Below, in pieces: positions 4,610 through 61,700 of a DNA stretch of 64,000 bases (position 1 is the stretch's first letter; every line of letters begins with the position of its first letter). Where the stretch lies: contig JABTVA010000008.1 in the NCBI GenBank assembly GCA_015075075.1, positions 50,215-114,214 of the forward strand, given 5' to 3'. A program made the translations under genes and the position numbers. Below the pieces are notes generated by a model. The model was not told the origin of the DNA. It saw nothing but the letters and a program-made list of their open reading frames with translations, and did not search any database. Origin of the DNA: Deltaproteobacteria bacterium (GTDB taxonomy: Bacteria > Desulfobacterota > GWC2-55-46).

Positions 4610-4635
4610 TTCCGGTCCTGATCATCGGGGCCAGC

Positions 4636-6441: not shown

Positions 6442-6671
6442 ATGAAGATTGTTGAAGGTTTTCAGGAGTTTACCACCGGGGCCCGCCGGTTTGCAAGCCG
6501 ATATTACCTTTGTCCGGCGCCCCTGGCCTCAAGGTCCGAAATGTATCTGGAGGCAGAAGTGTCGCCGAGCTCAAGCGCCTTTCTCATGCTGGCGTATGAT
6601 CTCTCGAAATTGCCGAGGTGCATATATACCTTGCCGAGGTCAATGTGCGCGGACGGGTCCGAGGGGTCGAG
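6371..6671. repeat. Near-identical ~300-bp segmental duplication, copy A (gene 3 end / intergenic / gene 2 start)
   Basis: Direct sequence comparison. Positions 6380-6612 match 8170-8402 exactly, with scattered mismatches beyond. Confidence 0.9.
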
Positions 6672-8228
6672 CGCAATCGCCTTCTGGAAGTCTTTAAGCG
6701 CATCGACGTAACGGCCTGCAAGGGCGTATGCCGTGCCGCGCGCCTTGTATACGGCCTTGCTTTCAGGGTCCGAATCCACTAACACGGTGAGGTCGGCGAT
6801 CCCTTTATCGAGCCTGCCCGCATTTACGAGGGCTACTCCGCGATTGAAATATATCTCGTTTATGAACGAAGGATGGAGGCTTACGCTCTTGTCCAGGTCT
6901 TTGATGGCATCTTCGTACATTCCCTTGGCAAGGTACACGGCGCCGCGGTTTACGTACCCGTATGCATAATCCGGGAAGAGCCTGACCTGATGGCTCCAGA
7001 GGGACAGTGAGTCCTTCCATACTCCAGCCTGCCCGAGCGTAGTGAAAGAGAGAAGGGCCGAGGCCGCTACCACTGAAGCCAGGACCGGCGCGAACGCGCT
7101 CCGGTTCTTTCCCGCGGCCCACCCTGCCCCTGCCGCAGCCAGTACCGCGAGGCCCATCCCCGGAATATAGGTGTATCTGTCGGCCGCGGCCTGCATCCCG
7201 ACCTGCAAAAACCCTATTACCGGGAGGAGCGTTACCGCAAAATAGGCCCAAACGGCTATGAAAACCCCGCTCCGCCTCCTGAGATAGACGGCGAGCGCCG
7301 TAATCGCAAGGAGCGCGAGGGCATAGGCCGCAAAGTGAAGGTTAAGGCCGGTTTGGAAATTCCGCGGGTAAAGTGGGGCGAGGTCCATGGGCGCAAGGGT
7401 CTTGTAGATATAAAAGAGGTAGCCTCTTTCCGCGACATGGAGCCGTCCGCTAAAGACGAGCTCCTGGACCGTGACCATTGCCTTGCTCTGCGACCAGACG
7501 GTGATAAGCCCGGTCGCGAGGCTCAGCATGAAGAAAGGGAGCTTCTCGATAACGGGCCTCGTCCAGCCTTCTTTCCTGAACCTGTCGAATGGGTAGAAGT
7601 CGAGTATCAGGAGCACGAGCGGCATGGTGACGGTCATGGGCTTACTGAGAAGCGAGAGGACGAAAAAGACAAGCGCCAATATATACGACGAGGCTTTTTT
7701 GTGCTTGGCGTAGCCGAGATAGGAAAGGATACCCAGGAGGAAAAAGAACGCGTTCAGGACGTCCTTTCTTTCACTTATCCAGACCACGGACTCTACCCTT
7801 AGCGGATGGAGCCCGAAGAGGAGCCCGGCTGAAAGGGCGATTAAAAATAGCCCCCGTGCCCCGAAGCCGCCTCTTGTCCCCGCGAGCCTCGCGCCGAGCA
7901 AGGCGACAAGAAAGACGTTTGCCGCATGGAGTGCCGAGTTCGTGAGGTGGTATCCCAGCGGGTTCAGTCCCCATATGGCGTAATCGAGCGTGAAGGAGAG
8001 GAAAGTTACTGGCACCCATGTCCCGACCACGACCGAGGTAAAGGCCTGTTTGAGATCCAGGCCCCGGATATCCGGGTTCCCGGTCACGTAGGAAGGGTCG
8101 TCCAGGTCCACGAACTCGAAACCGAGGGAAGGCAGATAGACCGCGAACGAAGCCACGGCCGATAGGAGGGCCGCGATGAGGATTATGTTTTCTGGTTTGC
8201 GGTTATCCGGCATACCGGAACGGTCCAT
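6504..8228 (-). CDS. GT-C-fold (PMT_2/TMTC-like) membrane protein with C-terminal TPR repeats, paralog 3
   Basis: 574 aa. N-terminus identical to paralog 2 ('MDRSGMPDNRKPENIILIAALLSA'). C-terminus identical to paralog 4 ('...SYASMRKALELGDTSASRYISDLEARGAGQR'). Confidence 0.7.
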   Translation of the reverse strand: MDRSGMPDNRKPENIILIAALLSAVASFAVYLPSLGFEFVDLDDPSYVTGNPDIRGLDLKQAFTSVVVGTWVPVTFLSFTLDYAIWGLNPLGYHLTNSALHAANVFLVALLGARLAGTRGGFGARGLFLIALSAGLLFGLHPLRVESVVWISERKDVLNAFFFLLGILSYLGYAKHKKASSYILALVFFVLSLLSKPMTVTMPLVLLILDFYPFDRFRKEGWTRPVIEKLPFFMLSLATGLITVWSQSKAMVTVQELVFSGRLHVAERGYLFYIYKTLAPMDLAPLYPRNFQTGLNLHFAAYALALLAITALAVYLRRRSGVFIAVWAYFAVTLLPVIGFLQVGMQAAADRYTYIPGMGLAVLAAAGAGWAAGKNRSAFAPVLASVVAASALLSFTTLGQAGVWKDSLSLWSHQVRLFPDYAYGYVNRGAVYLAKGMYEDAIKDLDKSVSLHPSFINEIYFNRGVALVNAGRLDKGIADLTVLVDSDPESKAVYKARGTAYALAGRYVDALKDFQKAIALDPSDPSAHIDLGKVYMHLGNFERSYASMRKALELGDTSASRYISDLEARGAGQR

Positions 8229-8461
8229 ATGAAGATTGTTGAAGGTTTTCAGGAGTTTACCACCGGGGCCCGCCGGTTTGCAAGCCGATATTACCTTTGT
8301 CCGGCGCCCCTGGCCTCAAGGTCCGAAATGTATCTGGAGGCAGAAGTGTCGCCGAGCTCAAGCGCCTTTCTCATGCTGGCGTATGATCTTTCGAAATTGC
8401 CGAGGTGCATATATACCTTGCCGAGGTCTATGTGCGCCGAAGGGTCTCCGGGGTCGAGCTC
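8161..8461. repeat. Near-identical ~300-bp segmental duplication, copy B (gene 4 end / intergenic / gene 3 start)
   Basis: See copy A. Includes the identical 62-bp intergenic spacer. Confidence 0.9.
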
Positions 8462-10090
8462 CGCTGCCTTCAGGAAGTCTTCGAGCGCCTCCCCGTATTG
8501 GCCGGAAATGGCGTATGCGGTGCCGCGCGCCCTGAATATGGCCTTGTTCCCCGGGTCTGAATCGAGGACTACAGTAAAATCCGAGATACCTTCCCTGAAC
8601 CTGCCGGCGTTTACGAGGGCGCTCCCGCGGCTTGAGTACGCAGGCAATGTGTTCGGCTCCAGCTCTATGGCCTTATCGAGGTCCGGGATGGCCAGGTCGA
8701 ACCTGCCGAGGGTCAAATAGGCGTTCCCGCGGTTAAAGTACCCGTGGCCGCTTTCAGGAGACATCTTACGGAGGTCCTCTATCGCGGATTCGTTCATGCC
8801 AAGCGCAACATAAGCGGCGCTCCGGTTCACATACCCCTGGCTGTGGGACGGGAAGACCTCTATCTGCCGGCTCCAGAGGGAGACCGGATTTTTCCAGATC
8901 ATTTCCTGCTTGAAGGCGAAAAAGGAGAGTAGCCCCGATGCCGCCAAAACCAGCGCCAAAACGGCCGGGAGACTTTTGCTATTCCTTTTCACAATCCAGC
9001 CTGCCGCGGCGGAAACGAGAATCGCCAGTCCGATGGCCGGAATATATGTATACCTGTCGGCAGCCGCCTGCCTTCCTACCTGCATGAGGCCTATGACAGG
9101 GAGCAGCGTGACCGCGTAGCAGGCCCATGCGGAAATAAAGGCCTTGCTCCATCTACGAAGGTAAAGGGCGAGAATGGTTATGGCTGCAAGCGCCGCGAGG
9201 TAAAGGACCGCCGAAAGGTTAAGGCCTGAGGCGAAGTCGCGGGGGTAGAGGGGCGCAAGGCCGGCCGGGATGACCGACTTGTAAATATAGAATAGATACC
9301 CCCTCGCCGCGATATGGATCCGGTCGGCGAACGGGAGCGCCTCCGGCGGCATCACGGCCTTTCCCTGCGACCAGATGGTCATTAGCCCGGCTGCCAGGCT
9401 CAGCATTAAAAATGGGAGTTTTTCAATTAGCGGCCTCTTCCACCCTTCCCTCTTGAGCCTTTCAAGAGGATAGTAGTCTAATATGAGAAGCACGAGCGGC
9501 ATGGTGACCGTCATGGGCTTACTTAGAAGTGAAAGGACGAAAAGGACGAGCGTCAATACATAGGAGGATGCCTTTTTGTTTTCAGCATACCCGAGATAGG
9601 CGTGGAGGCCGAGGAGAAAGAAGAAGGCGTTCAGGACGTCCTTTCTTTCGCTGACCCATGCCACTGACTCGGCCCTTAGAGGGTGTAGTCCGAAAAGGAG
9701 CCCGGCCGAGAGGGCCATGAGGAATAGCCCGCCTGCCCCGAGACCGCCCCTTCTGCCGGCGAGCCTCGCGGCCAGGAAGGCCACGAGAAAGACGTTGGCG
9801 GAGTGGAGTATCGTGTTCGTGAGGTGGTACCCCAGCGGGTCCAGCCCCCATACGGCGTAATCGAGGGCGAATGACAGGAACGTGAGCGGTATCCAGGTGC
9901 CTACCACGACAGCCGTGAAGGCCCATTTGAGGTCAATGCCCTGGATATCAGGGTTCTCGGATACGTACGCGGGGTCGTCCCAGTCAACGAAATCGAAGCC
10001 CAGGGAAGGGAGATAGAGCGCGAATGCGGCTATAGCGGATATGAGGGCCGCGAGGAAAATAAGTTTAAAAGAATAATCTCTTTCCGGCAT
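8291..10090 (-). CDS. GT-C-fold (PMT_2/TMTC-like) membrane protein with C-terminal TPR repeats, paralog 4
   Basis: 599 aa, same architecture ('FDFVDWDD'). Confidence 0.7.
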   Translation of the reverse strand: MPERDYSFKLIFLAALISAIAAFALYLPSLGFDFVDWDDPAYVSENPDIQGIDLKWAFTAVVVGTWIPLTFLSFALDYAVWGLDPLGYHLTNTILHSANVFLVAFLAARLAGRRGGLGAGGLFLMALSAGLLFGLHPLRAESVAWVSERKDVLNAFFFLLGLHAYLGYAENKKASSYVLTLVLFVLSLLSKPMTVTMPLVLLILDYYPLERLKREGWKRPLIEKLPFLMLSLAAGLMTIWSQGKAVMPPEALPFADRIHIAARGYLFYIYKSVIPAGLAPLYPRDFASGLNLSAVLYLAALAAITILALYLRRWSKAFISAWACYAVTLLPVIGLMQVGRQAAADRYTYIPAIGLAILVSAAAGWIVKRNSKSLPAVLALVLAASGLLSFFAFKQEMIWKNPVSLWSRQIEVFPSHSQGYVNRSAAYVALGMNESAIEDLRKMSPESGHGYFNRGNAYLTLGRFDLAIPDLDKAIELEPNTLPAYSSRGSALVNAGRFREGISDFTVVLDSDPGNKAIFRARGTAYAISGQYGEALEDFLKAAELDPGDPSAHIDLGKVYMHLGNFERSYASMRKALELGDTSASRYISDLEARGAGQR

Positions 10091-12729: not shown

Positions 12730-12860
12730 GCTGCTGCTCAAAAAATCCATCTGCGTCGAAGGCTACGTCGCTGGACACTCCGGCGTACGCGAAAAGTACG
12801 CCTCGTTCCTTGCTCCCCTGTTCCTAATGGGGCCTCGCATCCGGAGCTTTTTGAGCAGCC
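12729..12860. mobile_element. MITE-like element, family C (TIR GGCTGCTCAAAAA / TTTTTGAGCAGCC)
   Basis: Terminal inverted repeats. Homologous copies at 24033, 31811, 35350 and 56511. Its 3' end is read through by the artificial N-terminal extension of the next ORF. Confidence 0.7.
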
Positions 12861-12913
12861 TAAGCGAATTTTGTATTTTCCCGCAACCTGTTGGCCGAAG
12901 GGTTTTTATTGAG

Positions 12914-15921: not shown

Positions 15922-16055
15922 TGTTGAAAAGCACTTCCTGGACTTTTTCAATCACGGCTTGGCCGGAATAATCCGTCCAAGCCCCGCAAAATGCTCGACC
16001 TTGGACAGTCTTCGCAATTTGGCATCCATCCGTGGATTGCATATCAGGATGTTTT
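15922..16055. repeat. Structured repeat element, family E (copy 1), abutting the stop codon of the ATPase gene
   Basis: About 135 bp with nested inverted repeats (TTGAAAAAGTCC...GGACTTTTTCAA; GGCTTGG...CCAAGCC; GTTGAAAAA...TTTTTCAAC). A second copy at 52580 is about 85% identical. Confidence 0.75.
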
Positions 16056-16213
16056 TCAACACCCTGATAAAGTCCTGATGAGGCCTGCTCCTTTTCGGGG
16101 CTTTCCCTTTTTCCTGCTATCCTGATTTCCATGAGCCAGGCTTTTTTTGGTTTGCGGAAAAGTTCCACTTGTGATATATTCCGGCAATCCACTATGTGAG
16201 CGAGTTCAGGCGG

Positions 16214-24032: not shown

Positions 24033-24300
24033 GGCTGCTGAAAAAGCCCAATCTGCTGTGTCGTCTTCAAAGTTGGACACTCCGGCGTACAAGAAAAGTA
24101 CGCCTCATTCCTAAGGAAGCTCTGATTAATTCAATGTGTCGTCATTGCGAGCGAAGTTGAAACAATCTTATCTTTGGAAAATCAAGCATTAGAGATTGCT
24201 TCGGAGCTAAAGCTCCTAAGCAATGACAACAGAAAACAGAATTAATCAGACCTTCCCTAATTTTTCGACTCCTTGCATCTTGAGCTTTTTGAGCAGCCTG
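24033..24300. mobile_element. MITE family C copy interrupted by a nested family B MITE (24120-24251)
   Basis: Left part 24033-24119 and right part 24252-24300 match the intact C copies. The inserted B element carries TIRs 'GGAAGCTCTGATTAATTC / GAATTAATCAGACCTTCC'. Confidence 0.75.
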
Positions 24301-24380
24301 AATGTGGGTTTTTGAAGTAATCTTTTAAAGCCCAAGCCGGTTCTGATTTCTGTCCGTCCATCAAGGCCGGGAGGCCTGCC

Positions 24381-31810: not shown

Positions 31811-31958
31811 GGCTGCTGAAAAAGCCCAATCTGCTGTGTCGTCTTCAAAATTCGTCATTGCAGCGTACAAAAAAGTACGCCTCATTCCTCATTTTTCGAC
31901 TCCTTGCATCTTGGACTTTTTGAGCAGCCTGGATGTGATTTTTGAGTTTTTCAGCAAT
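31811..31958. mobile_element. MITE family C (intact copy)
   Basis: TIR GGCTGCTGAAAAAG...CTTTTTGAGCAGCC, plus the conserved tail GAGTTTTTCAGCAATCT. Confidence 0.75.
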
Positions 31959-35349: not shown

Positions 35350-35495
35350 GGCTGCTCAAAACGCCCTTGAATGCGTCGTCTTCAAATTGGCAACTCCGGC
35401 GTACAGGAAAGTACGACTCATTCCTCATTTTTCGACCCCTTGCATCTTGGACTTTTTGAGCAGCCTGAACGTGCCATGAGTTTTTCAGCAACCTG
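35350..35495. mobile_element. MITE family C
   Basis: TIRs GGCTGCTCAAAA...CTTTTTGAGCAGCC and the tail GAGTTTTTCAGCAACCT. Confidence 0.7.
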
Positions 35496-37845: not shown

Positions 37846-37911
37846 TATGCCTCACGGATCTTCGATGGTAAAGAAGGTGAGGGCGGTTGCACTGGTTTTT
37901 CGAGTCTCCGC

Positions 37912-37950
37912 AGACCCTCCCTTCGCAAGAAGAGAGGGTTTTTTTATTTT
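37912..37950 (+). terminator. Riboswitch expression-platform terminator
   Basis: 'CCCTCCCTTCGCAAGAAGAGAGGG' hairpin followed by T7ATTTT. Confidence 0.6.
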
Positions 37951-38021
37951 CAAGCGGTCATGGCGGTTTTGTTCGAGAGCGCCGGTTTCCCGGGCGTACA
38001 TCTGAAACGGAGCATGTTGCG

Positions 38022-39050
38022 ATGTCTGATGCGAGAGGGTCAAAGGCCGTATTGCTTCTCGGCCACGGGAGCAAGGCCGACGAGGCCAACGAGACGCTTA
38101 GAAGGATTGCGAAGGCCGTGAAGGAGGCGGGCGGGTACGGCATAGTCCAGCCGGCCTTTCTCCAGATGGAGAGCCCGGACTTCCAGGAGGCCGTGGATAT
38201 GATGGTCGGGAGGGGGTTTACGGATATTACGGTCATGCCGTATTTCCTCTACATGGGCCTCCATGTGACAAAGGACCTGCCCGATGAGATAGAGCGGGCA
38301 AAGACGAGGCACAAGGGCCTCAGGATTTCAGTCAAGGACAACCTGGGCTTCCATGAAAAGCTCGTTGACATAACAATAGAGCGGATAGAGGCGGGGGCTA
38401 CCCGGGACGCGGGCGTGCCCAGCCAGCACCCGATAGAAAAAGAGAGCTTCAGGATATTGTCGTCCGAGATGGACGATAGCGCTTTTTCCTCCCTCGAACT
38501 CCCGATAATAAAGAGGGTCGTACACTCGACCGCCGATTTCGAGTACAAGGACCACGTGGGTTTCAGCCCTGGCGCTGTGGAGGCCGGCATAGAGGCCCTG
38601 AGGGCCGGGCGGGACATAATAACGGACGTAAGGATGATAGAGGCCGGGATATCGAAGGCTCGATTAACTCCCTTCGGTTCCGCCGTCCGCTGTTTCTCAT
38701 CTGACAGGGACGTGGCCGTGATTGCGGAGAAGGAGGGGCTTACCAAGACCGCGGCCTCCATGAGAAAGGCCTCGAAGCGGATGGACGGCTCGATAGTGGC
38801 GATAGGGAACGCGCCGACCGCGCTACAGGAGCTTCTGAAAATCGTCAAGGAAGGCGGGCCGAGGCCAGCCCTCGTCATAGGCGTGCCCGTCGGCTTCGTC
38901 GGCGCGGTCGAATCCAAGGAAGAGCTCGCGAAGAGCGGCATTCCTCATATACTCACGAGAGGGCGTAAGGGCGGGAGCACGGTCGCCGTGGCCATAGTGA
39001 ACGCACTTGCGATACTCGCCTCCGAGCTCGTGGAGGGTAGCGTCAAATAA
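38022..39050 (+). CDS. cbiC: Fused sirohydrochlorin cobaltochelatase (CbiX-small) / precorrin-8X methylmutase (CbiC)
   Basis: N-terminal CbiX signature 'VLLLGHGSKADEANE...MPYFLYMGLHV'. C-terminal CbiC/CobH domain with the conserved His-containing 'VVHSTADFEY' segment. Lies downstream of the B12 riboswitch. Confidence 0.75.
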   Translation: MSDARGSKAVLLLGHGSKADEANETLRRIAKAVKEAGGYGIVQPAFLQMESPDFQEAVDMMVGRGFTDITVMPYFLYMGLHVTKDLPDEIERAKTRHKGLRISVKDNLGFHEKLVDITIERIEAGATRDAGVPSQHPIEKESFRILSSEMDDSAFSSLELPIIKRVVHSTADFEYKDHVGFSPGAVEAGIEALRAGRDIITDVRMIEAGISKARLTPFGSAVRCFSSDRDVAVIAEKEGLTKTAASMRKASKRMDGSIVAIGNAPTALQELLKIVKEGGPRPALVIGVPVGFVGAVESKEELAKSGIPHILTRGRKGGSTVAVAIVNALAILASELVEGSVK

Positions 39051-51208: not shown

Positions 51209-52585
51209 ATGTTGAAGGAAGGCAGCATCAGCCTCGACAGGCAGGGGCGCATAATAAGGTTCAGCAACAGCCTCGAGGAGATGCTCGGCTACTCGCCGGA
51301 CGAGGTGATGGGAAGGGAGTTCTCCATCTTTGTCCCGCCAGGAGCGGAATCCCCTGTAGAGGCCTTTCTCAGCGGCCCCGAGGAGGAGCCGCACCACGCG
51401 TCCAGGAAGACCGGCATACTCCGGAAGGACGGGACTCTCTCCGAGCCGTACATGTCAATACACCCTTTGAGGGACCGCACGGGCGCGCTCTATTCCGTCC
51501 TCCTTACGCTCTCTGTCAGGAAGAGCGGCCTTCCTGCCTTCCTTACCGAGGAGTTCAGGCGCATATTCAAGTTCTCCAACGACGGGGTCGCCATAACCGA
51601 CCGGGACGGCTCGATAATAGACGTAAACCCCGCTTTCCTCGAGACCTACGGCTATCAAAGGCACGAGGTCCTTGGAAAGAACCCGAGGATACTCAAGTCC
51701 TGCCATTCCACAAGGGACCTCTATGAGAGGATGTGGCAGGACATACTCGACCCCGCGAAAGGCTTCTGGAGGGGCGAGATAATCAACATGGCGCGGGACG
51801 GCTCCGAGGTGCCGGTGCTCCTTTCGATAAACGCGATAAAGGACGAGCACGGGGATATAAGGAACTTCCTCGGCATAACCTTCAACATGACGAGGGAGAA
51901 AAAGCTCGAGAAGCTCCGGAAGATGTACATCGACCATATCGTCCATGACATAAGGGGCCCTCTTACCTCGATATCCATAAATTCCGAGCTCCTACTCATG
52001 GGCCAGGAGCTTCCTGAAAAGGCCAGGAAGAAGCTGGACGTTATCCTCTCCTCGGCCCAGAGGATAGAGTCCATGACCTCCGACATACTCGATTTCAGCA
52101 GGGCCGAGAACGGGAAGCTCGTTTTGAGGAGGGAGGCCGTAATGCTCTCGGAAACAGTCAGGGACGCGGCCCTTCCTTTCGAGGGCTCGGGGAAGAAGCT
52201 CCTCGTCAATGGCGCGCCCATGTCCGACGGGGCCCTCGATTTCGAGGTCTTCGCGGACGAGGACAAGCTGAGGAGGGTCATATACAACCTCTTGAGCAAT
52301 GCCTTCAAGCACGCCTCCGAAATCGTGGACATCTCGGCCGAGGCCGGCGCCGAGGGCCTCAGGTTCACGGTCTGGAACGACGGGAGGGGCATTGCCCAGG
52401 AGGAGGCGGAAAGGATCTTCGACGCCTTCTTCCAGACCGCCGAAGGCGTAAAGACCGGCGGGGCAGGGCTGGGCCTTAGCATCGTCAAGAGCTTTGTAGA
52501 GGCCCACGGCGGAAGGGTCTGGGTCGAGGCCGGAAAAGAGAGGGGAGTTACCTTCGGCTTCACGATACCTTTAGCAGGATGTTGA
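51209..52585 (+). CDS. Cytoplasmic PAS-PAS sensor histidine kinase
   Basis: Two PAS segments, H-box 'HDIRGPLTSISINSELL', and N/G boxes 'YNLLSNAFKHA' and 'GGAGLGLSIVK'. No TM helices. Confidence 0.85.
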   Translation: MLKEGSISLDRQGRIIRFSNSLEEMLGYSPDEVMGREFSIFVPPGAESPVEAFLSGPEEEPHHASRKTGILRKDGTLSEPYMSIHPLRDRTGALYSVLLTLSVRKSGLPAFLTEEFRRIFKFSNDGVAITDRDGSIIDVNPAFLETYGYQRHEVLGKNPRILKSCHSTRDLYERMWQDILDPAKGFWRGEIINMARDGSEVPVLLSINAIKDEHGDIRNFLGITFNMTREKKLEKLRKMYIDHIVHDIRGPLTSISINSELLLMGQELPEKARKKLDVILSSAQRIESMTSDILDFSRAENGKLVLRREAVMLSETVRDAALPFEGSGKKLLVNGAPMSDGALDFEVFADEDKLRRVIYNLLSNAFKHASEIVDISAEAGAEGLRFTVWNDGRGIAQEEAERIFDAFFQTAEGVKTGGAGLGLSIVKSFVEAHGGRVWVEAGKERGVTFGFTIPLAGC

Positions 52586-52715
52586 AAAAGTCCTTCCTGG
52601 ACTTTTTCAACCACGGCTTGGCCGGAATGAATACGACCAAGCCTTGCAAATTGCCCGACTTGAATAGTCTTCGCAATTTGGCAAATCCATCCGTGGTTGC
52701 CTGACAGGATGTTTT
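52580..52715. repeat. Structured repeat element, family E (copy 2); supplies the TGA stop of the kinase gene
   Basis: About 85% identical to the copy at 15922, with the same nested inverted repeats. Confidence 0.75.
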
Positions 52716-52849
52716 TCGACACCCTGTTAGAGGGGGCGAGCTTAAGCGCGCCTTGACTCTTACGCATCCTCCGTGTTAACATTTTTTACCGAAGGGCCGG
52801 TTTCTCTCTCAATATAGGCCCCGGGTATTAGATTTCCTAAAATCAAATA

Positions 52850-53005
52850 GAAACGATCTCCGAGCCATCCTGCCTAAAGCCGGTCCTTTTCATGGCCGCG
52901 CAACGGGGGGTGGCCGATAGGGCCCTGCTGGAAACGGTTTGGCCTCCCCACTGGAAAGGAGATTGACAGTGCCAACCCCTTTCCGTGGCGGTTGGTTTTT
53001 TTTTG
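52850..53005 (+). promoter_or_regulatory. Molybdenum-cofactor (Moco) riboswitch-like leader with terminator
   Basis: 'CTCCGAGCCATCCTGCC..AAAGCCGG...GGAAACGG...GGCCTCCCCACTGGAAAGGAGA' matches hallmark blocks of the Moco RNA motif. It is followed by hairpin 'CCAACC...GGTTGG' plus T9, immediately upstream of modABC. Confidence 0.55.
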
Positions 53006-53023
53006 CTTACTGAGGGGCGTGCC

Positions 53024-53791
53024 ATGATGCTCAGGTCTGTATTACTTTCATTCCTTTTTTTAGCGCAAATAATATGCCCGTTTCCCTCTGTAGCCGGAGA
53101 CCGGCAGCTTACTGTCGCGGGCGCATCGGACCTGGCATTCGCCTTCAAGGAGATAGCCGCGCTGTTCGAGAAGGAGACGGGCTGGAAGGTGGTGCTCTCT
53201 ATGGGCTCGACCGGGATGCTCGCCAAGCAGATAGAGCACGGCGCGCCTTTCGATGCGTTTTTCGCCGCCAACAAGAGCTATATAGACGGCCTTGCAGATA
53301 AGGGGAAGGTCATATCCGAGACCGTCGGACTATACGCGAGAGGGAGGATAGTCCTCGCCGTTCGGAAGGGGTCGGAGATGAAGCCCGAGGGGCTTCAAGG
53401 CCTCGTCAGCGGTTCATACAGGATAGCCATCGCCAACCCGGACCACGCGCCTTATGGCAAGGCCGCGATGGAAGCCATGAAGGCCGCCGGTGTCTGGGAC
53501 AAGGTGAAAACCAGGCTCGTCTACGGAGAGAACATAAGGCAGGCCCTCCAGTTCGTCCAGTCAGGGAACGCCCCTGTCGGGGTAGTGGCGCTATCTGTCG
53601 CCGACGTGCCGGAGATAGACTACATTCTCATACCCGAAGAGCTGCATGCCCCCATAGACCAGGCCGCGGCAGTGGTGACCGCGTCGAAGAACGGGCAGGC
53701 TGCAAGGGACTTCATAAGGTTCGTCAACGGGCCCTGGGGCGCCCCGATAATGGAAAAATACGGGTTCATGCTTCCGGGGGTGCTTGAATAA
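53024..53791 (+). CDS. modA: Molybdate/tungstate ABC transporter periplasmic binding protein
   Basis: Signal peptide 'MMLRSVLLSFLFLAQII' and ModA-family motifs ('SMGSTG', 'ANPDHAPYG'). Start set at the ATG after the leader terminator. Confidence 0.8.
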   Translation: MMLRSVLLSFLFLAQIICPFPSVAGDRQLTVAGASDLAFAFKEIAALFEKETGWKVVLSMGSTGMLAKQIEHGAPFDAFFAANKSYIDGLADKGKVISETVGLYARGRIVLAVRKGSEMKPEGLQGLVSGSYRIAIANPDHAPYGKAAMEAMKAAGVWDKVKTRLVYGENIRQALQFVQSGNAPVGVVALSVADVPEIDYILIPEELHAPIDQAAAVVTASKNGQAARDFIRFVNGPWGAPIMEKYGFMLPGVLE

Positions 53792-54448
53792 GTGGATTTG
53801 TTCCCTTTATACATAACCGTAAAGGTCTCGCTCACGGCGACGGTAATAACCGTCGCCGTAGGCCTTGTTCTCGCCTGGGTCATGGCAAAGCGGGAATTTT
53901 TCGGTAAAAGCATCGTGGACGTAGTGATAATGCAGCCGCTCGTCATCCCGCCCACGGTTCTCGGCTACTACCTCCTTGTAGCCTTCGGGAAATCGAGCTG
54001 GTTAGGGCAGTTCCTCTCCGACGGATTGGGCATCGAGCTCGTCTTTACCTGGAAGGGGGCGGTCATCGCAGCCTTCATCTCGTCGCTTCCCCTTTTCGTC
54101 AAGCCCGCGAGGGCAGCGCTCGAAGGCGTGGGCTCGGAGCTCGAGGACGCGGCAAGGCTCCTCGGGAAGACCGAGCTGCAGGTCATAACGACCATAACCC
54201 TGCCGCTTGCGTGGCGGGGGCTATTCGCGGGCGCGGTCATGGCCTTTGCGCGCGCGACCGGCGAGTTCGGCGCGACCCTAATGATAGCGGGGAACATCCC
54301 GGGCCTTACCCAGACCTTGCCCATAGCCATATACGACGCGGTGCAGGCAGGGGACTACGCGACAGCCAACCTGCTCGTCGGCATAATAACGCTATTCTCC
54401 TTCACGGTCCTCTTCATAGCCGGGAGGTTCAGCCGGGTGAGGTTCTGA
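53792..54448 (+). CDS. modB: Molybdate ABC transporter permease
   Basis: EAA loop region 'ARATGEFGATLMIAGN', about 218 aa with 5 TM. Confidence 0.8.
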   Translation: MDLFPLYITVKVSLTATVITVAVGLVLAWVMAKREFFGKSIVDVVIMQPLVIPPTVLGYYLLVAFGKSSWLGQFLSDGLGIELVFTWKGAVIAAFISSLPLFVKPARAALEGVGSELEDAARLLGKTELQVITTITLPLAWRGLFAGAVMAFARATGEFGATLMIAGNIPGLTQTLPIAIYDAVQAGDYATANLLVGIITLFSFTVLFIAGRFSRVRF

Positions 54449-54449
54449 G

Positions 54450-55460
54450 ATGCTGGACATATCCCTGAGAAAAAGGCTCCCCGGCTTCAATGTGGAGGTG
54501 GACCTCTCCGTGGACGAGGAGCTCCTTGTGCTCTTCGGCCCGTCCGGCGCCGGAAAGAGCCTGGTACTCAAGATGATATCCGGCATCGTCGAGCCTGACG
54601 CGGGCCGGGTGGCTGTTGCCAACGAAACGCTCTTCGATTCGGGCATTGGCGTAAACCTCCCCATGAGGATGAGGAAGGTAGGGCACCTCTTCCAGGACTA
54701 CGCGCTTTTCCCGCACATGACCGTATCGGAGAACATAGCCTACGGCATAGGGGGCGGGAACAAGGACGAGGCCCGTAAGAAGGTAGGGGAGCTCATTACC
54801 GTGATGAGGCTTTCGGGGCTTGAAAAGAGGTACCCGCAGGAGCTTTCGGGCGGGCAGAAGCAGAGGACCGCCCTTGCGAGGACCCTTGCGGCAGGGCCCA
54901 GGGTACTCCTCCTTGACGAGCCCTTCTCGGCCCTCGATTATCAGGTCAGGGAAAAGCTCAGGGCCGACCTCCTCAATATCCACCGCATCTACCCGATTAC
55001 GACCGTACTCGTAACGCACGACCTCGAAGAGGCCTTCATGCTGGGCAAAAGGATAGCGGTCATAAATAACGGGACTATCGAGCAGGCCGGCACCCAGGAG
55101 GACGTCTTCTACAGGCCCCTTACGAGGAACGTGGCCCGGTTCATGGGCGTGCGTAATATCTTCTCAGGAAAAGTTGCCGCCCTGGAAGGGGCGCACCTCG
55201 TCATAGACAACCCGGACATAGGCATGGTCAAGGCCCCATTGCCGCCCGGCCCGGCCTTGAGCCCCGGGACTGAAGTCTCTTTCTGCATACGCCCCGAGGA
55301 GATACTCGTCATTAGGCCCGACAGGGTGCTCGGGAAGGTCCAGGACAACATACTGGAATGCATGATAACGGGCACTGTCGGCAGGGGCCTGACCACATAC
55401 TCTACCTGGACGGCAGGAGGGCAGTACCGCCAAAGGCGGAGCTTCCAATTTTGTGCTTAG
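54450..55460 (+). CDS. modC: Molybdate ABC transporter ATPase with C-terminal TOBE-like domain
   Basis: Walker A 'GPSGAGKS', signature 'LSGGQKQR', Walker B 'LLLDEPF'. The last ~25 aa may be frame-disturbed. Confidence 0.8.
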   Translation: MLDISLRKRLPGFNVEVDLSVDEELLVLFGPSGAGKSLVLKMISGIVEPDAGRVAVANETLFDSGIGVNLPMRMRKVGHLFQDYALFPHMTVSENIAYGIGGGNKDEARKKVGELITVMRLSGLEKRYPQELSGGQKQRTALARTLAAGPRVLLLDEPFSALDYQVREKLRADLLNIHRIYPITTVLVTHDLEEAFMLGKRIAVINNGTIEQAGTQEDVFYRPLTRNVARFMGVRNIFSGKVAALEGAHLVIDNPDIGMVKAPLPPGPALSPGTEVSFCIRPEEILVIRPDRVLGKVQDNILECMITGTVGRGLTTYSTWTAGGQYRQRRSFQFCA

Positions 55461-55543
55461 AAAACTTGGACGTGCGGCCAGCGTATCAGTTGTTGAAAAA
55501 GGAGAATATTTGGGTAATAAGATAAAACCCTGAAAAGGTTTCA

Positions 55544-56491
55544 ATGGACACACACCGGCACGACACTCACGGGCATGAGGTTGAAGCCGACTCCGGCCTC
55601 AAAAGGCGCCTCCTCGTATCCATAACGCTTACGAGCGTAATCTTCATTGCCGAGCTCATAGGCGGTTTCCTTACGAACTCGCTCGCCCTCATGACCGACG
55701 CGGCGCACGTCTTCATGGACGTCTTCGCGCTTTCGCTCTCCCTATTCGCCATATACATAGCCGAGCTTCCGCCGACCGAGAAAAGGACCTACGGCTTCCA
55801 CAGGGTCGAGGTCTTCGTGTCGTTCATAAATAGCTTCGTCCTCGTCCTCATAACCGCCTTCATCTTCTACAAGGGCTTCCTCCGGTTCTTCAACCCCGAG
55901 CCGGTCGAGAGCGCCGGGGTGCTCATCGTGGGCTCCATAGGCCTGGTCGTTAACCTGATGGTCGCGAAATGGCTGCACGGCCACGCAAAGTCCGACCTGA
56001 ACGTCAGGAGCGCCTTCATACACGTCGTGGGCGACGCTGCGGCCTCGGTGGGAGTCATAATCTCGGCTGTCGTAATATATTATACTGGATGGTATCCCAT
56101 CGACCCGCTCATAAGCATGGCCATCTGCGCGCTTATCATAAACGGGGCGGTTAAGATAATAAGGGAGTCCTCGCACATACTCCTTGAGGGTGTGCCGAGG
56201 GAGATAGATTTCGGGAGGGTCAGGGACGACATACTCTCGCCCGAGGGCGTAACAGGCGTGCACAGCCTGCACATCTGGTCAATATGCCACAACGTCTACG
56301 CCCTTAGCGCGCACGTGGACATAATCCCGACCCAGAGGTGGAGGATGGGGGAGATATTCAGCGAGATAAACGAGAAGCTCGCGCATGACCACCATATCTT
56401 CTACACCACCCTGCAGGCCGAATGCTCAGGATGCGAGCCGAATGACATATTCCGGAAGATAGCCCACAGGGGGCGCGGACACCTGCATTGA
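55544..56491 (+). CDS. Cation diffusion facilitator family transporter (CzcD/ZitB-like)
   Basis: N-terminal His-rich 'HRHDTHGHE', about 6 TM with 'HVFMD' and 'HVVGD' metal sites, and a C-terminal cytoplasmic domain. Confidence 0.8.
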   Translation: MDTHRHDTHGHEVEADSGLKRRLLVSITLTSVIFIAELIGGFLTNSLALMTDAAHVFMDVFALSLSLFAIYIAELPPTEKRTYGFHRVEVFVSFINSFVLVLITAFIFYKGFLRFFNPEPVESAGVLIVGSIGLVVNLMVAKWLHGHAKSDLNVRSAFIHVVGDAAASVGVIISAVVIYYTGWYPIDPLISMAICALIINGAVKIIRESSHILLEGVPREIDFGRVRDDILSPEGVTGVHSLHIWSICHNVYALSAHVDIIPTQRWRMGEIFSEINEKLAHDHHIFYTTLQAECSGCEPNDIFRKIAHRGRGHLH

Positions 56492-56497
56492 CGTGCG

Positions 56498-56781
56498 GCA
56501 ACCTCTAACAGGCTGCTGAAAAAGTCGTTCTCCGTCGAAGGCTACGTCGCTCGTCACTGCGGCGTACAAGAAAAGTACGCCTCATTCCTCGCTCCTCGAC
56601 GCCTCGCATCTGGAGCTTTTTGAGCAGCCTGAACAAAAACGGAGTTTTTCAGCAAGCTGCCAAGAAAGGATCTTTTCCCCGGACTCTGCTTCGGGCCGGG
56701 AATAAAATGCTATATGCTCCGTTTTTTATTCCCGGCCTTCCGGGAAAAGCGGGAAAAATCTCTGATTTTTTAGAGGTTGCC
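56498..56781. mobile_element. MITE family D with a nested family C MITE (56511-56658)
   Basis: D left TIR 'GGCAACCTCTAACA' at 56498. Directly followed by C 'GGCTGCTGAAAAAG...GAGTTTTTCAGCAAGCTG'. The D body then runs to the right TIR 'TTTTTAGAGGTTGCC' at 56781. Confidence 0.7.
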
Positions 56782-56833: not shown

Positions 56834-59277
56834 ATGCCCAGAGAGAAGCGGTTGCCGGTCGAAGAGCTCGCCTGGAGGTGCAGCCCCGAGAGGTTCTCCT
56901 TCGCGACTACTAACGAGCTCGCGTCCCTCCAGGAGATAATAGGCCAGGACAGGGCGCTCCGCTCCATCCAGTTCGGCCTCGGAATAACAAACCACAACTA
57001 TAACATCTTCGTCCTGGGCGACACAGGGGTGGGGAAATCCACCTCGATAAAGGAGATCATAGAGGCCAGGGCCAAGGGCGAGCCCGTGCCGGACGATTGG
57101 TGCTATGTCTTCAACTTCGAGGACGTGGACACGCCGACGGCCATAAGCCTGCCGCCCGGCAGGGGCGCCGACTTCGCCGCCGAAATGGACGAGCTCGTGG
57201 AGACGCTGCTGCGCGACATACCCAAAGTCTTCGAGTCAAAGGACTACGAGAAGCACAGGGACGAGATAATCGAGGGGCAGCAGGAACGGACGAGGTCTCT
57301 CTTTTTCAGGCTCGAGCAGAGGGCCATGGAAAGGGGGCTCGTCCTCAAGAAGACCGTTAGCGGCTTAGCGGTAGTGCCTGCCAAGAACGGCAAGCCCATG
57401 AGCCAGGAGGAGTTCGAGTCCCTGCCGCCAGAGCGGAGGGCCATGATAGAGCAGGACCTGGCCGTCATGCAGGACAAGCTCTCGGACGCCGTCAGGGAGG
57501 CCCGGAACATAGAGAAGGAGACCAAGGAGCGGATAAACGCCCTCGACAGGGAGGTCGTCCAATACGTGGTGAACCCCGCGATAAACGAGCTCCTCGATAA
57601 GTTCAAGGAGTTCAAGGGGGTTGTGGACTACCTCTACAAGGTCAAGGAGAATATCCTGAATAACATCGACGACTTCAGGCCCAAGGAGGAGGTCCCGCTC
57701 GCCATCGGGGGCCTCCGGCTCCAGAAGCCCGAGCCCTCCTTCGAGCGCTACAAGGTGAACCTCTTCGTCGGCAACAGGGAGTCCGAGGGCGCGCCTGTCG
57801 TGTACGAGTCCAACCCCACATACACCAACCTCTTCGGGAGGATCGAGTACAAGGTGCAGCTCGGGGCCGCCACCACCGACTTCACCATGGTAAAGCCCGG
57901 GAGCGTGCACAAGGCAAACGGCGGCTATCTCATCGTCAACGCCCTTGACATACTACGGAACATATTCGTATACGATTCTCTGAAGAGGATGATAAAGAAC
58001 AGGGAGGCGCGCATAGAGGACCCGTGGGAGCAGTACAGGATCGTATCCGCCACGACTTTAAAGCCGGCGCCCATCCCCGTGAACATAAAGCTCGTCATCA
58101 TAGGCGAGCCGTTCATCTACTACCTCCTCTACAACCTCGATACCGAATACAGGAAGTCTTCAAGGTCAAGGCCGACTTCGATACCGTCATGCCGAGGACC
58201 GACGCGAATATCGAGAAGTACGCGTATCATCGCCACCTGGTGCAGGAGGAGGGGCTCATACCCTTCGACAGGACCGGTGTGGGAAAGGTCGTGGAGTTCG
58301 GCGCGCGGCTTGCCGGCGACAGGGAGAAGCTCTCGGCCAGATTTAACGAGGTGACGAACATCATCGTGGAGGCGAGCTACTGGGCCGGTGTCGAGGGGTC
58401 CGGGACCGTCTCGGCCTCGCACGTGGAGAAGGCCGATTCAGAGCGGGTCTACAGGAACTCGAAGTTATCCGATGGAGCCCGACTACATAAGGGAAGATAC
58501 GCTTATGGTCGCCACCGTTGGAAAGATGGCTGCAGGTGAACGGCCTTGCCATCCTCGACCTGGGCGACTACGCCTTCGGCAAGCCTTCGAGGGTAACGGC
58601 CAGGGTCTTCATGGGAGATGCCGGGGTCGTCAACATAGAGCGGGAAGTGAAGATGAGCGGCCGCATACACAACAAGGCCCTCATGATATTCACGAGCTTT
58701 CTGGGCGAGAGGTTCGCCCAGAGTTCCTCTCACCCTCTCGGCGTCCATAACCTTCGAGCAGCTTTATGGAGGATAGAGGGCGACAGCGCGACATGCACGG
58801 AGATATCGCTCCTTATTTCGCCTCTGGCGTGCCTCTGACCAGGACATAGCGGTAACCGGCTCAATGAACCAGCGGGGCGAGGTCCAGCCCATAGCGGCGT
58901 GAACGAGAAGATAGGCGATTTTCGAGATATAAGCGCTGGCGGGCTCACCGGCGGACGGGGTCATAATACCCAGAAGGAACGTCAAGAACCTGATGTCAGA
59001 GGAGGTAATATAGAGGGCAGCGACGGCAAGTTCGCGATATACCCCATAGAGCACGTTGACGAGGGTCTCGAGATATTGACCGGCATGCCGGTCGGGGAAA
59101 GGGACGAGAAGGGAGGCTTCCCTGAGGGGAGCGTGAACCGGCTTGTCGAGGCGAGGCTGGGTCGCCGCTAAGAGCTTCAAGGAGTTCGGAAGGCCCCCGC
59201 CAAAGGAACTGGCCGGCGGCGGAATGGGAGAGGCCGCGAAGGGCACGGACAAGAAGGACGGGAAGGACGGGAAATAA
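56834..59277 (+). pseudogene. Lon-like AAA+ protease (LonB/LonC-type), C-terminal half disrupted by >=6 frameshifts
   Basis: Intact N-part to ~58150 has Walker A 'VLGDTGVGKST'. Downstream Lon S16 blocks are scattered over three frames, e.g. 'LAILDLGDYAFGKPSRVTARVFMGDAGVVNIEREVKMSGRIHNKALMI' and 'PLTQDIAVTGSMNQRGEVQPI'. Confidence 0.6.
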
Positions 59278-59281
59278 GAAG

Positions 59282-59900
59282 ATGCTGGTCTATGAGATAT
59301 TCAAGAGTATCCAGGGGGAGTCGGCCGGCGCTGGCTCCCTGTGTTTTCATAAGGCTTGCGGGCTGCAACCTCGGGTGCAGGTGGTGCGACACCCCTTACG
59401 CCAGGGTCCCTGACGGCGAATGAGCTTCGATAGACGAGGTCATGAGGAGGTTACGCCTACGGGACTGCAGGCTGGTCGAGATAACGGGGCGCCGCTCCAG
59501 GAGGAGACGAAAGAGCTGGCCCGATGCTCGCAGGACAGGGGCGGACCGTGCTCATGGAGACCAACGGCTCCGTGCCGGTCTCAGGCCTCGACGAGAGGGT
59601 CATAAAGATAGTCGATGTGAAGTGCCCGTCCAGCGGGCACGCCGGCTCCTTTCTCCTGAAAACCTCTCCCACATAACCCCGGAGGACGAGGTAAAGCTCG
59701 TGGTCGCGGACAGGGGCGACTACGACTGGGCCAAGGAGTTCATTGAAGAGGTGCTAGGGAAGGAACCGAAAAGTGCTTTTGCGCCCGTGAGGCCCCGATC
59801 TAATCCCAGTGACCCGCCGCCTGATACTTAGGACGGCTGCGGGTCAGTCAGCTCCAGCCCATTCCCACATATGGCCGGAAGAGCGCGGCAGGGCTTTACT
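59282..59900 (+). pseudogene. queE: 7-carboxy-7-deazaguanine synthase, multiply frameshifted
   Basis: '[13 protein letters not shown]..' continues in other frames as '[21 protein letters not shown]', 'VEITGGEP.LQEETKELARCSQDRG' and 'VLMETNGSVPVSGLDERVIKIVDVKCPSSGHAG'. Confidence 0.55.
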
Positions 59901-59930
59901 TTCGGCCTCAATCTGTAAAATCCCTGATAT

Positions 59931-60066
59931 GGCAACCTCTAAAGTGATCTTTTCCCCGGATCTCTTAGTCAGGCCGGAAATAAAATGCTCACATATTGTC
60001 ATATATGCTCCGCTTTTATTCGGCCTTCCTCGATTGTGAGGAAAATCTCCAATTTTAGAGGTTGCC
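59931..60066. mobile_element. MITE family D (intact, perfect TIRs GGCAACCTCTAAA / TTTAGAGGTTGCC)
   Basis: Perfect 13-bp TIRs. The body is homologous to the other D copies. Confidence 0.8.
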
Positions 60067-60157
60067 ATGAATGATATGAACGGAGCCGTCCGGCTTCCTG
60101 CATAGCATCGGGCCCGGCCTGCCGGGTCCGGACACTTAGGAGAGTGTTGGCAGCACG

Positions 60158-60925
60158 ATGAAGCCGTTCCTTATAGCCGCAATTACACTCTATGCCCTGA
60201 GCGTAATCACCGTCGTAATCCACCACGCCTCCGGCTCGGAAAAAGCTCGGGAGCGCGTCCAAATGGCCTCGTCCTGGGCCTCCTTTCGTCCATTCTGGGC
60301 CTAATCGAGCGCATCGTAACAACGGGGCATGCGCCGATGGCCTCCATGTACGAAACGCTCGTCTTTTTCAGCTGGACGACCGTGCTCGTGAGCGCGGTCG
60401 TGATATTCAGGTACGACGAGCGGGAGACCGAGGTCATAACCCTGCCCGTAGCCGTCCTCGCCTCTCTTCTTCGCCCTCGAACGAGAAACCGGGCCGCTTA
60501 CGCTCGTCCTCCGCACCGTCTGGTTCCGAGACGCATCGCTATCCTCCTCGCGGCCTACGCGCTTACCGCGCCTTCTCCGAGCGGTCATATACTTCTGGAA
60601 GAATGAAGGGGTCCGGGCGGAGGACATAAAGAAGTTCCAGGAGATAGCCGCAAAGAGCATATTATGGGGCTTCTTTTTCTTCTCGGCCTCCATGTTCGCC
60701 GGCGCGGTATGGGCGTATCTCGCCTGGGGCACCTACTGGCTCTGGGAGCCTAAGGTAATATGGTCGTTCATAGTCTGGTTCTATTACGCGGGGGCCATGC
60801 ACGCGTGGTACGTGAGGGAGTGGCGCGGCGTGGGGCTCTCCATCGCTACGGTCCTGGGCTTTTTCGTCGTCCTCTTCACCTACCTCGGCGTATCGCTCCT
60901 CATGAAGAGCAGCCACAGCTTCTGA
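60158..60925 (+). pseudogene. ccsA: Cytochrome c-type biogenesis protein CcsA (system II), frameshifted at >=3 sites
   Basis: WWD-type tryptophan-rich motif 'WAYLAWGTYWLWEPKV' with conserved His residues. The N-terminal and middle TM segments lie in different frames (ORFs 60337-60606 and 60692-60925). Confidence 0.55.
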
Positions 60926-60947
60926 GCGCGCGAAACCACCAGCGCGC

Positions 60948-61700
60948 CTATTTTGCCCTCCCCTTCCTCCACCACATGACAGCCGACCTCTTGTGGAACT
61001 TCGCAAGCAGCACGCCCTTTTTCCTGACGAGCTTGCCTCCGAGATAGTCCCTTAATTTCCTGTCGTGCTCCTCGGTCACGATGCCGATGTACTCCTTCCA
61101 GAACTCGATTGCCTCGTCCAGGCTCTCGAAAGGCTGGTCGAAATCGTATTCGATTATCTCGACGTTCGCAAAGACGCCGAGCGAGTGGAGCGCGGAGTAG
61201 GTCTTGAAGTAGTCGGCCCTCTCGCCGAAGGGCTTGTTGAAGAGTAGCGGATAGAGCTCCCTGTAGTAGAACTTGTCGGCCGTGGGGTCTGCGTTCTCGA
61301 TGATGAATACGGCCTTCCTCGCAAGGCGGTCCATCTCCTTGAGGTTCGCCTCGGGCTCGGCGAGTAGCGTGGGGACGTTCGCGCAGATGACCGCGTCGTG
61401 CTGCCTGATCTCCACCTTCCCCCATTCCGCCTGCACAGGCCTTATGTTCCGTATCTTGTCCCTCGCCATGTCCTCCCTGAGTATCTCGATCATGGCAGCC
61501 GACGAGTCGAGCGCCGTAACGCTTTTCCCGGCCTTTGCAAGCGGCATGGCAAGAGTACCGCACCCCGCGCCTATGTCGAGGAAGGTCTTCGCGTCAGCGG
61601 CCCTCGGGAGTATCACAGAGAGCGCCTTCTCGGGAAAATCGGTGTAATCCAGCCCTTTCCTGTACCAATTGGCCTTCAGCCTGTTCCAGAAACCCTGCAT
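60948..61700 (-). CDS. Class I SAM-dependent methyltransferase
   Basis: Motif I 'LDIGAGCGTLA', 250 aa. Confidence 0.75.
   Translation of the reverse strand: MQGFWNRLKANWYRKGLDYTDFPEKALSVILPRAADAKTFLDIGAGCGTLAMPLAKAGKSVTALDSSAAMIEILREDMARDKIRNIRPVQAEWGKVEIRQHDAVICANVPTLLAEPEANLKEMDRLARKAVFIIENADPTADKFYYRELYPLLFNKPFGERADYFKTYSALHSLGVFANVEIIEYDFDQPFESLDEAIEFWKEYIGIVTEEHDRKLRDYLGGKLVRKKGVLLAKFHKRSAVMWWRKGRAK

Follow-up and report, generated by a model that had tools for sequence, protein, structure and literature searches.

We analysed a 64,000-nt stretch of DNA (hereafter, the window) from contig JABTVA010000008.1 of the Deltaproteobacteria bacterium assembly GCA_015075075.1 (positions 50,215 to 114,214, forward strand), in which the genes modA and modB for molybdate/tungstate uptake, together with an adjacent ATPase gene, are preceded by a structured leader. 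This leader contains a member of the molybdenum-cofactor (Moco) RNA class (Rfam family RF01055) in its P3-lacking form, followed by an intrinsic terminator and an alternative, competing antiterminator hairpin, and it very probably operates as a riboswitch that is turned OFF by the bound cofactor through transcription attenuation. The order of elements is promoter, aptamer, terminator/antiterminator and ribosome-binding site (RBS), then modA and modB, all on the plus strand.

The aptamer and its expression platform

The whole window was searched with cmscan (Infernal) against 4227 Rfam families, with the curated gathering score as the threshold. Two matches exceeded it, a cobalamin riboswitch and RF01055, the latter at 52846–52977, where the model scores 58.5 bits (gathering score 36; E = 1.8e-11) and aligns end to end (model positions 1–135 of 135) with the P3 columns deleted. 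The first-pass annotation had based its assignment to the Moco class on three conserved blocks and had named a search with this model as the way to verify it; the covariance-model match is clearly positive, and all three blocks, CTCCGAGCCATCCTGCC (52858–52874), GGAAACGG (52930–52937) and GGCCTCCCCACTGGAAAGGAGA (52941–52962), can be read directly in the sequence and fold into P1, P2, P4 and P5.

The Rfam alignment and an independent minimum-energy fold of 52856–52970 agree on the formation of all four helices. P1 is made by AUCUCC (52856–52861) and GGAGAU (52958–52963), and P2, which includes a CCUAAA receptor-like internal loop and is also supported by covariation in 79 P3-less RNAs, extends over 52864–52914, its distal hairpin being 11 nt longer than in two of the related loci described below (L010 and L014). 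P4, at 52920–52945, is capped by a GAAA tetraloop (52931–52934). P5 (CC 52946–52947 paired with GG 52953–52954), an AAA junction and the 3' strand of P1 (52958–52963) occupy 52946–52963, a conserved 3' core that doubles as the 5' arm of the antiterminator. The site where Moco-type RNAs carry P3 is reduced to the P2–P4 junction CGAUA (52915–52919), with all P3 model positions aligned to gaps, and because CGAUA alone links the two helices there is no room for a hairpin between them. The P1–P5 architecture that had been expected is thus present as P1-P2-P4-P5, with P3 missing. Apart from the tetraloop receptor, all features that define RF01055 and can be checked computationally were found.

The intrinsic terminator spans 52971–53004 (−13.2 kcal/mol, z = −2.46). 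Its stem joins 52971–52979 to 52987–52996 through nine pairs (6 G-C, 2 A-U and 1 G-U) with one bulged C, closes on the 7-nt loop UUUCCGU and is directly followed by U9 (T9 at 52996–53004); CCAACC (52972–52977) and GGTTGG (52990–52995), the hairpin arms recognized at the outset, belong to this stem, which makes a plausible intrinsic terminator. The antiterminator hairpin, at 52946–52991, pairs CCCCAC-U-GGAAAGG-A-G (52946–52961) with C-CCUUUCC-GUGG-C-GG (52977–52991) through the core GGAAAGG:CCUUUCC, extended by CCAC:GUGG and CC:GG. It folds with −19.4 kcal/mol (z = −3.0), and only 2 of 200 shuffles were as good. The aptamer 3' core, CCCCAC-U-GGAAAGG, is complementary to CCUUUCCGUGG within the terminator, and the duplex of the 3' core with the terminator region reaches −21.2 kcal/mol, compared with −10.2 ± 3.2 kcal/mol for shuffled terminator regions, 0.5% of which were as low. 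The complementarity has a P-value of 0.028 by helix length and 0.005 by duplex energy, in a test whose 50-leader set includes false ‘terminator-type’ cases with the T-run inside a coding region. Because the antiterminator takes up the G residues of P5 and P1 as well as parts of both terminator arms, the two hairpins are mutually exclusive. When the 3' strand of the aptamer is left free, the minimum-energy fold is the antiterminator, and when that strand is blocked, it is the terminator; this holds for the window and for three related loci (L001, L010 and L014).

The RBS of modA, GAGGGG at 53012–53017 by direct reading, lies 48 nt past P1, 6 nt before the ATG at 53024 and 9 nt before the ATG at 53027. 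Since it is outside both alternative hairpins, control is most likely transcriptional. Both an independent RBS for modA and regulation by attenuation had been proposed in the first-pass annotation, and the competition between the terminator and an antiterminator built from the aptamer 3' core fits the latter. Upstream of the aptamer, a promoter scan identified a sigma-70-type promoter at 52753–52782, consisting of TTGACT (−35), an 18-nt spacer and an extended −10 element, TG-n-TAACAT (9 of 12 matches, TG present), from which transcription would start near 52789.

In the mechanism that we propose, transcripts would begin at this conserved promoter, and a plentiful supply of the metal-bound pyranopterin cofactor would lead to its binding by the aptamer and to the locking of P1 and P5. 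The segment GGAAAGGAGAU (52953–52963) would then be kept within the aptamer, so that the CCAACCCC...GG-C-GGUUGG hairpin could form before U9 and RNA polymerase would stop ahead of modA. When the cofactor is scarce, the aptamer 3' core would pair with CCUUUCCGUGG-GG; this segment being inside the terminator, no terminator would form and polymerase would read through to the uptake genes, the outcome being end-product feedback on oxyanion uptake. The OFF direction, with cofactor binding leading to termination, is suggested by the structure and by analogy with the published behaviour of the class, which is known for transporter genes, terminator-type platforms and repression by the cofactor (PMC2408646).

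Several observations weigh against a functional switch of this kind. The evidence on the ligand of the class comes from genetics and not from in vitro binding (PMC2408646). The stability of the fold is unremarkable both for the whole leader (z = −0.84) and for the aptamer only (z = −0.38), and the receptor-like loop opposite the GAAA tetraloop is degenerate, CCUAAA...AACGG versus the usual CCUAAG...UAUGG. A simple terminator scan of 52000–53500 reported no terminator; its rule admits loops of 3–8 nt, and the 6-pair stem alone leaves a 12-nt loop here, outside the rule, so that the bulged-C hairpin was presumably missed because such a scan cannot handle bulged stems. Finally, two of the related leaders conform imperfectly: the antiterminator of L001 contains an uncompensated A-C mismatch, and in L081, where the antiterminator has one uncompensated mismatch, the minimum-energy fold is not the antiterminator.

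The modest stability of the whole leader and the degenerate receptor would also fit a chance match or an aptamer in decay, with the hairpin and T9 serving to terminate transcription of the histidine kinase gene upstream. Such an explanation is extremely improbable, given the E-value of the RF01055 match, the conserved promoter between the kinase gene and the aptamer, the perfect 13-bp hairpin that the kinase gene has of its own (52581–52611) and the retention of the aptamer, with compensatory changes, in relatives with ~70% ModA identity. Control of translation through access to the RBS, with the hairpin and T9 incidental, has precedents, because many members of the class, including that of Escherichia coli moaA, carry the RBS inside the 3' strand of P1 (PMC2408646), as do about one-third of the RNAs in our metagenome sample (for example, ...GAAAAGGAGGACUUAUG). 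We nevertheless regard it as very unlikely for this leader, where the RBS is remote from P1 and free of both hairpins, while the hairpin with T9 and the complementarity to the aptamer core are kept in four relatives; in L010, moreover, the annotated start of modA is ~150 nt away from the terminator, with a repeat element in between, making direct contact between the aptamer and the RBS unlikely there.

Related loci and P3-less RNAs in metagenomes

Scanning of contigs for ModA yielded one close relative, and further related loci were collected by protein search and contig look-ups. The ModA of the window is 100% identical to a protein of the ‘Deltaproteobacteria bacterium’ metagenome-assembled genome (MAG) GCA_023384475.1 (contig JAHDWX010000002.1), and the window and this contig are 99.0% identical over 20.7 kb, with the riboswitch region identical. 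The alignment of the window with the GenBank record of this contig (L006) includes 201 mismatched or gapped columns, concentrated in two indel-rich patches (55389–55580 and 58000–61000), which in the window truncate the ATPase in the modC position and split the LonC protease gene (525 versus 824 aa). In related uncultured Desulfobacterota (UBA5799-like), the genes likewise run phosphopentomutase, HTH/PilZ (helix-turn-helix/PilZ), histidine kinase, modABC, CDF and LonC, and the ModA proteins of these contigs are 59–73% identical to that of the window.

Five distinct leaders bear the riboswitch: that of the window and L006, L001, L010/11/12/65/118, L014/15/51 and L081. Each has an RF01055 match of 58.5–82.3 bits (59.6–82.3 bits for the related loci alone) or an aligned aptamer, and P3 is missing from all five. 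Relatives with a ModA only 69–73% identical to that of the window have kept the promoter, the aptamer and the terminator: in every one of the five leaders (window included), a TTGACT-18 nt-TAAnnT promoter precedes the aptamer by 45–117 nt, and CCAAC...GUUGG with U9 and a CCUUUCC segment follow it. The antiterminator also occurs in L001, L010, L014 and L081, with a significant duplex in all four, and its flanking pairs change in a compensating manner, from CAC/GUG in the window to CUU/AAG in L010 and AU/AU in L014.

Four distinct related loci (L007-9, L013, L016 and L017/18) lack the riboswitch, and in these a gene of 123–141 aa is found between the kinase gene and modA, the interval that corresponds to 52586–53023 in the window. 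Riboswitch-less L007 is as near to the window as riboswitch-bearing L001, their kinases being 87% and 83% identical to that of the window, respectively. The product of the additional gene (1304–1675 in L007, 2328–2753 in L013, 1335–1712 in L016 and 2573–2947 in L017) matches the ModE N-terminal domain (TIGR00637) with 84–87 bits and E ~1e-24, just under the cutoff of 98.5, and at two of these loci a porin gene comes next. No locus in the related-locus sample combined the riboswitch with the ModE-N-like gene, and L019 had neither. It is conceivable, if rather unlikely, that the syntenic modABC genes of this clade are run either by a P3-less riboswitch or by a ModE-like oxyanion-sensing repressor and that, should the RNA sense the tungsten cofactor (Tuco), the swap marks lineages in which the ModA importer has turned to tungsten. 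If true, the exchange of the riboswitch for a ModE-like gene would provide a natural paired system for the long-unproven claim that P3 loss underlies Mo/W selectivity.

To extend the comparison to metagenomes, we used the pattern CTCCGAGCC-N25-55-GGCCGATAGGGC, which retrieved 111 loci, the majority with a complete 3' core. Together with the related loci, these supplied 79 distinct P3-less aptamers with the same GGCCGAUAGGGC junction, which were aligned with MAFFT. RNAalifold returned no P1 or P5 for this alignment, in which ~12 of the 3' ends are off by one column, and P1, P2, P4 and P5 were therefore supplied by hand; the same shift explains why pairing in P1 is only 79%. Across the 79 RNAs, 88.5% of the cells are paired (73.7% after shuffling), 356 cells are changed on both sides (133 after shuffling) and the covariation score is 0.404, compared with 0.151 in shuffled and at most 0.152 in slid controls, none of 500 shuffles reaching any of the three observed values. 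All seven variable pairs of P4 are changed on both sides, and P2 covaries as well.

The first downstream gene was tabulated for 89 P3-less leaders with a callable open reading frame (ORF), the window and the related loci included. TonB-dependent receptors were the commonest (17 of 89, behind RNAs with the GGCCGAUAGGGC junction), followed by MoaA (15), TupA-like proteins (12), an unassigned and possibly spurious 107-aa ORF (12) and ModA (10). Smaller numbers encoded an unassigned 240-aa protein (5), the xanthine-dehydrogenase (XDH) FAD subunit (4), MoeA (3), an unassigned protein with a weak SorA-like match (2), a molybdopterin aldehyde oxidoreductase (2) and a formate-dehydrogenase-like protein (1), and each of six other genes was seen a single time. 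P3-less RNAs hence stand before both tungsten-specific genes and typically molybdenum-dependent enzyme families. Their presence before XDH-family and aldehyde oxidoreductase genes clashes with a strict equation of P3 absence with tungsten and cautions against applying it automatically. Near the TonB-dependent receptor loci, no mod or tup genes were present in the available flanking sequence, and a literature search on TonB-dependent receptors under Moco riboswitches gave nothing specific. Examples from the metagenome loci (L021-L131) include L114 (3360–5450), L031 (1005–1871) and L084 (1698–4493). One metagenome locus, L044, contains two near-identical P3-less aptamers (118–175 and 570–627) on the same strand, 452 nt apart, each with a terminator.

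The cofactor and its metal

The ligand is expected to fall within the Moco/Tuco cofactor family, and by analogy with the published P3 rule we lean slightly to Tuco over Moco. In the founding survey, 58 of 176 Moco RNA representatives had no P3, and this absence correlated near-perfectly with tungsten-cofactor metabolism: Tuco-related genes are present in 17 of the 19 organisms that have P3-less RNAs, and such an RNA in Pelobacter carbinolicus, ahead of a predicted molybdate transporter, was explained by a Tuco ligand and a transporter serving mainly for tungstate (Regulski et al. 2008, PMC2408646). In Eubacterium limosum, a 2024 study treated the absence of P3 as the signature of Tuco riboswitches and described P3-less RNAs before W-enzyme and tupABC genes, two of them with terminator-type platforms and some with downstream genes that respond to W limitation (PMC11725836). 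The first-pass annotation had left the choice between a W-type and a Mo-type variant to be settled; having no P3, the leader is of the P3-lacking type, which both studies associate with Tuco by correlation.

On these grounds, to which the missing P3 in the RF01055 alignment and the TupA-like proteins encoded behind 12 of the 89 P3-less leaders can be added, there is close to an even chance that the ligand is specifically Tuco and that the ModA-type system is mainly a tungstate importer in this organism. Weighing against tungsten, the binding protein is matched by ModA (TIGR01256) and by neither TupA nor WtpA; a scan of ten large window ORFs revealed no W or Mo (pterin) enzyme, and neither a tungsten enzyme nor a tup/wtp gene can be seen in the 64-kb window. 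In the metagenome sample, moreover, XDH-family and molybdopterin aldehyde-oxidoreductase genes are among those preceded by P3-less RNAs with the same junction, and the P3 rule is itself correlative. To our knowledge, ModA-type binders do not discriminate between molybdate and tungstate.

A ligand that is Moco, or an aptamer that does not discriminate between Moco and Tuco, with the loss of P3 a structural variation irrelevant to the metal, is plausible too, although we place its chances below even. The operon is annotated, and scores, as one for molybdate transport, the riboswitch-less related loci have a ModE-like repressor gene in the same position, and P3-less RNAs precede the genes for XDH FAD subunits, molybdopterin aldehyde oxidoreductase, MoaA and MoeA, in the numbers given above. 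The counts for MoaA and MoeA are neutral, however, because these proteins serve both cofactors, and this explanation is at odds with the published finding that P3-less RNAs segregate almost perfectly with Tuco metabolism (PMC2408646).

Genomic surroundings and comparison with known systems

The gene modA (53024–53791), for a periplasmic molybdate/tungstate-binding protein, matches TIGR01256 with 210.6 bits (cutoff 62.5) and PF13531; in GenBank its start is placed at the ATG at 53027, with a further ATG at 53024. The permease gene modB (53792–54448) matches TIGR02141 with 232.1 bits (cutoff 182.6). The downstream genes had been taken for modABC, which is borne out for the first two, whereas the third, in the position of modC (54450–55460), encodes an ABC ATPase that scores 198–210 bits with the modC model, under its cutoff of 285; in the window, an indel-rich patch disrupts the C-terminus of the ATPase, leaving 336 aa where the GenBank record has 362 aa. 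A ZitB-like cation efflux gene of the CDF family comes next (55544–56491), 19 nt past the ATPase gene in the GenBank record, and all related loci have it at this place. Co-transcription with modABC, which would bring it under the riboswitch, is possible, although a connection to Mo or W is not obvious.

On the upstream side, the gene for a PAS histidine kinase ends at 52585. A perfect 13-bp inverted repeat, GUUGAAAAAGUCC-UUCCU-GGACUUUUUCAAC (52581–52611; −23.7 kcal/mol, z = −4.05), overlaps its stop codon and has no T-tract behind it. A 134-nt repeat occupies 52593–52726, with a second copy, 87% identical, at 15934–16066. The leader had been placed immediately after this repeat; the repeat is indeed nearby, but 120 nt separate its end from the aptamer, and the promoter lies in that gap. 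Further short intergenic repeats are found at 12733–12890, 24035–24311, 31811–31942, 35384–35495 and 56512–56761 and make up several families with inverted ends, such as GCTGCTGAAAAAG...CTTTTTGAGCAGCC. Related elements are also present in riboswitch leaders of the relatives, between the terminator and modA in L010 and L081 and between the promoter and the aptamer in L014, so that such elements evidently insert into the leader without destroying it.

Elsewhere in the window, the cobalamin riboswitch (RF00174; 37674–37858, 108.4 bits) is followed downstream by a fused CbiX/CbiC gene (37887–39050) and by a long cluster for cobalamin biosynthesis (CbiD, methylases, CbiG). On the minus strand, four tandem paralogous genes of ~500–600 aa (3098–10090) are spaced by ~1.8 kb and share 63–83% DNA identity; the one that was scanned encodes a TPR-repeat protein.

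The riboswitch class, its P3-less variant, its placement before ModA-type transporters and its terminator-type platform are already published (PMC2408646). What this analysis provides is the correct annotation of a metal-uptake leader in an uncultured sediment/groundwater Desulfobacterota MAG, where feedback would be exerted by the pterin cofactor and not by the oxyanion; the alternation of the riboswitch with a ModE-like gene at one syntenic site and the P3-less RNAs before typical Mo-enzyme genes are of modest added value. There is no difference in kind from the known P3-lacking Moco RNAs (RF01055; PMC2408646). The leader has the same core, CUCCGAGCC, AGGGC, the GAAA tetraloop, GCCUCCC and GGAAAGGAG, the same P1-P2-P4-P5 architecture, a ModA-type transporter downstream, as in P. 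carbinolicus, and an antiterminator that likewise overlaps an aptamer helix, and its hairpin and U-tract platform is that of the E. limosum fetABC1 and focA examples with terminators (PMC11725836). It is set apart by its host, an uncultured Desulfobacterota (UBA5799-like MAG), by the longer distal part of P2 and by the degenerate tetraloop receptor (CCUAAA/AACGG).

The E. coli moaA riboswitch shares with this leader the family model, the core and, as predicted here, repression by the finished cofactor, but it possesses P3, masks the RBS within P1 and thus acts on translation, controls biosynthesis instead of uptake and was reported to be unresponsive to the tungsten form (PMC2408646). Repression of modABC by ModE, the E. 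coli paradigm, acts on the same modABC promoter/leader and to the same end, namely to turn uptake off when the cell is supplied, and differs in that a protein senses the oxyanion, whereas the RNA would sense the finished cofactor. In the sister lineages studied here, the ModE-N-like gene and the riboswitch occupy the same syntenic position and are mutually exclusive within the related-locus sample.

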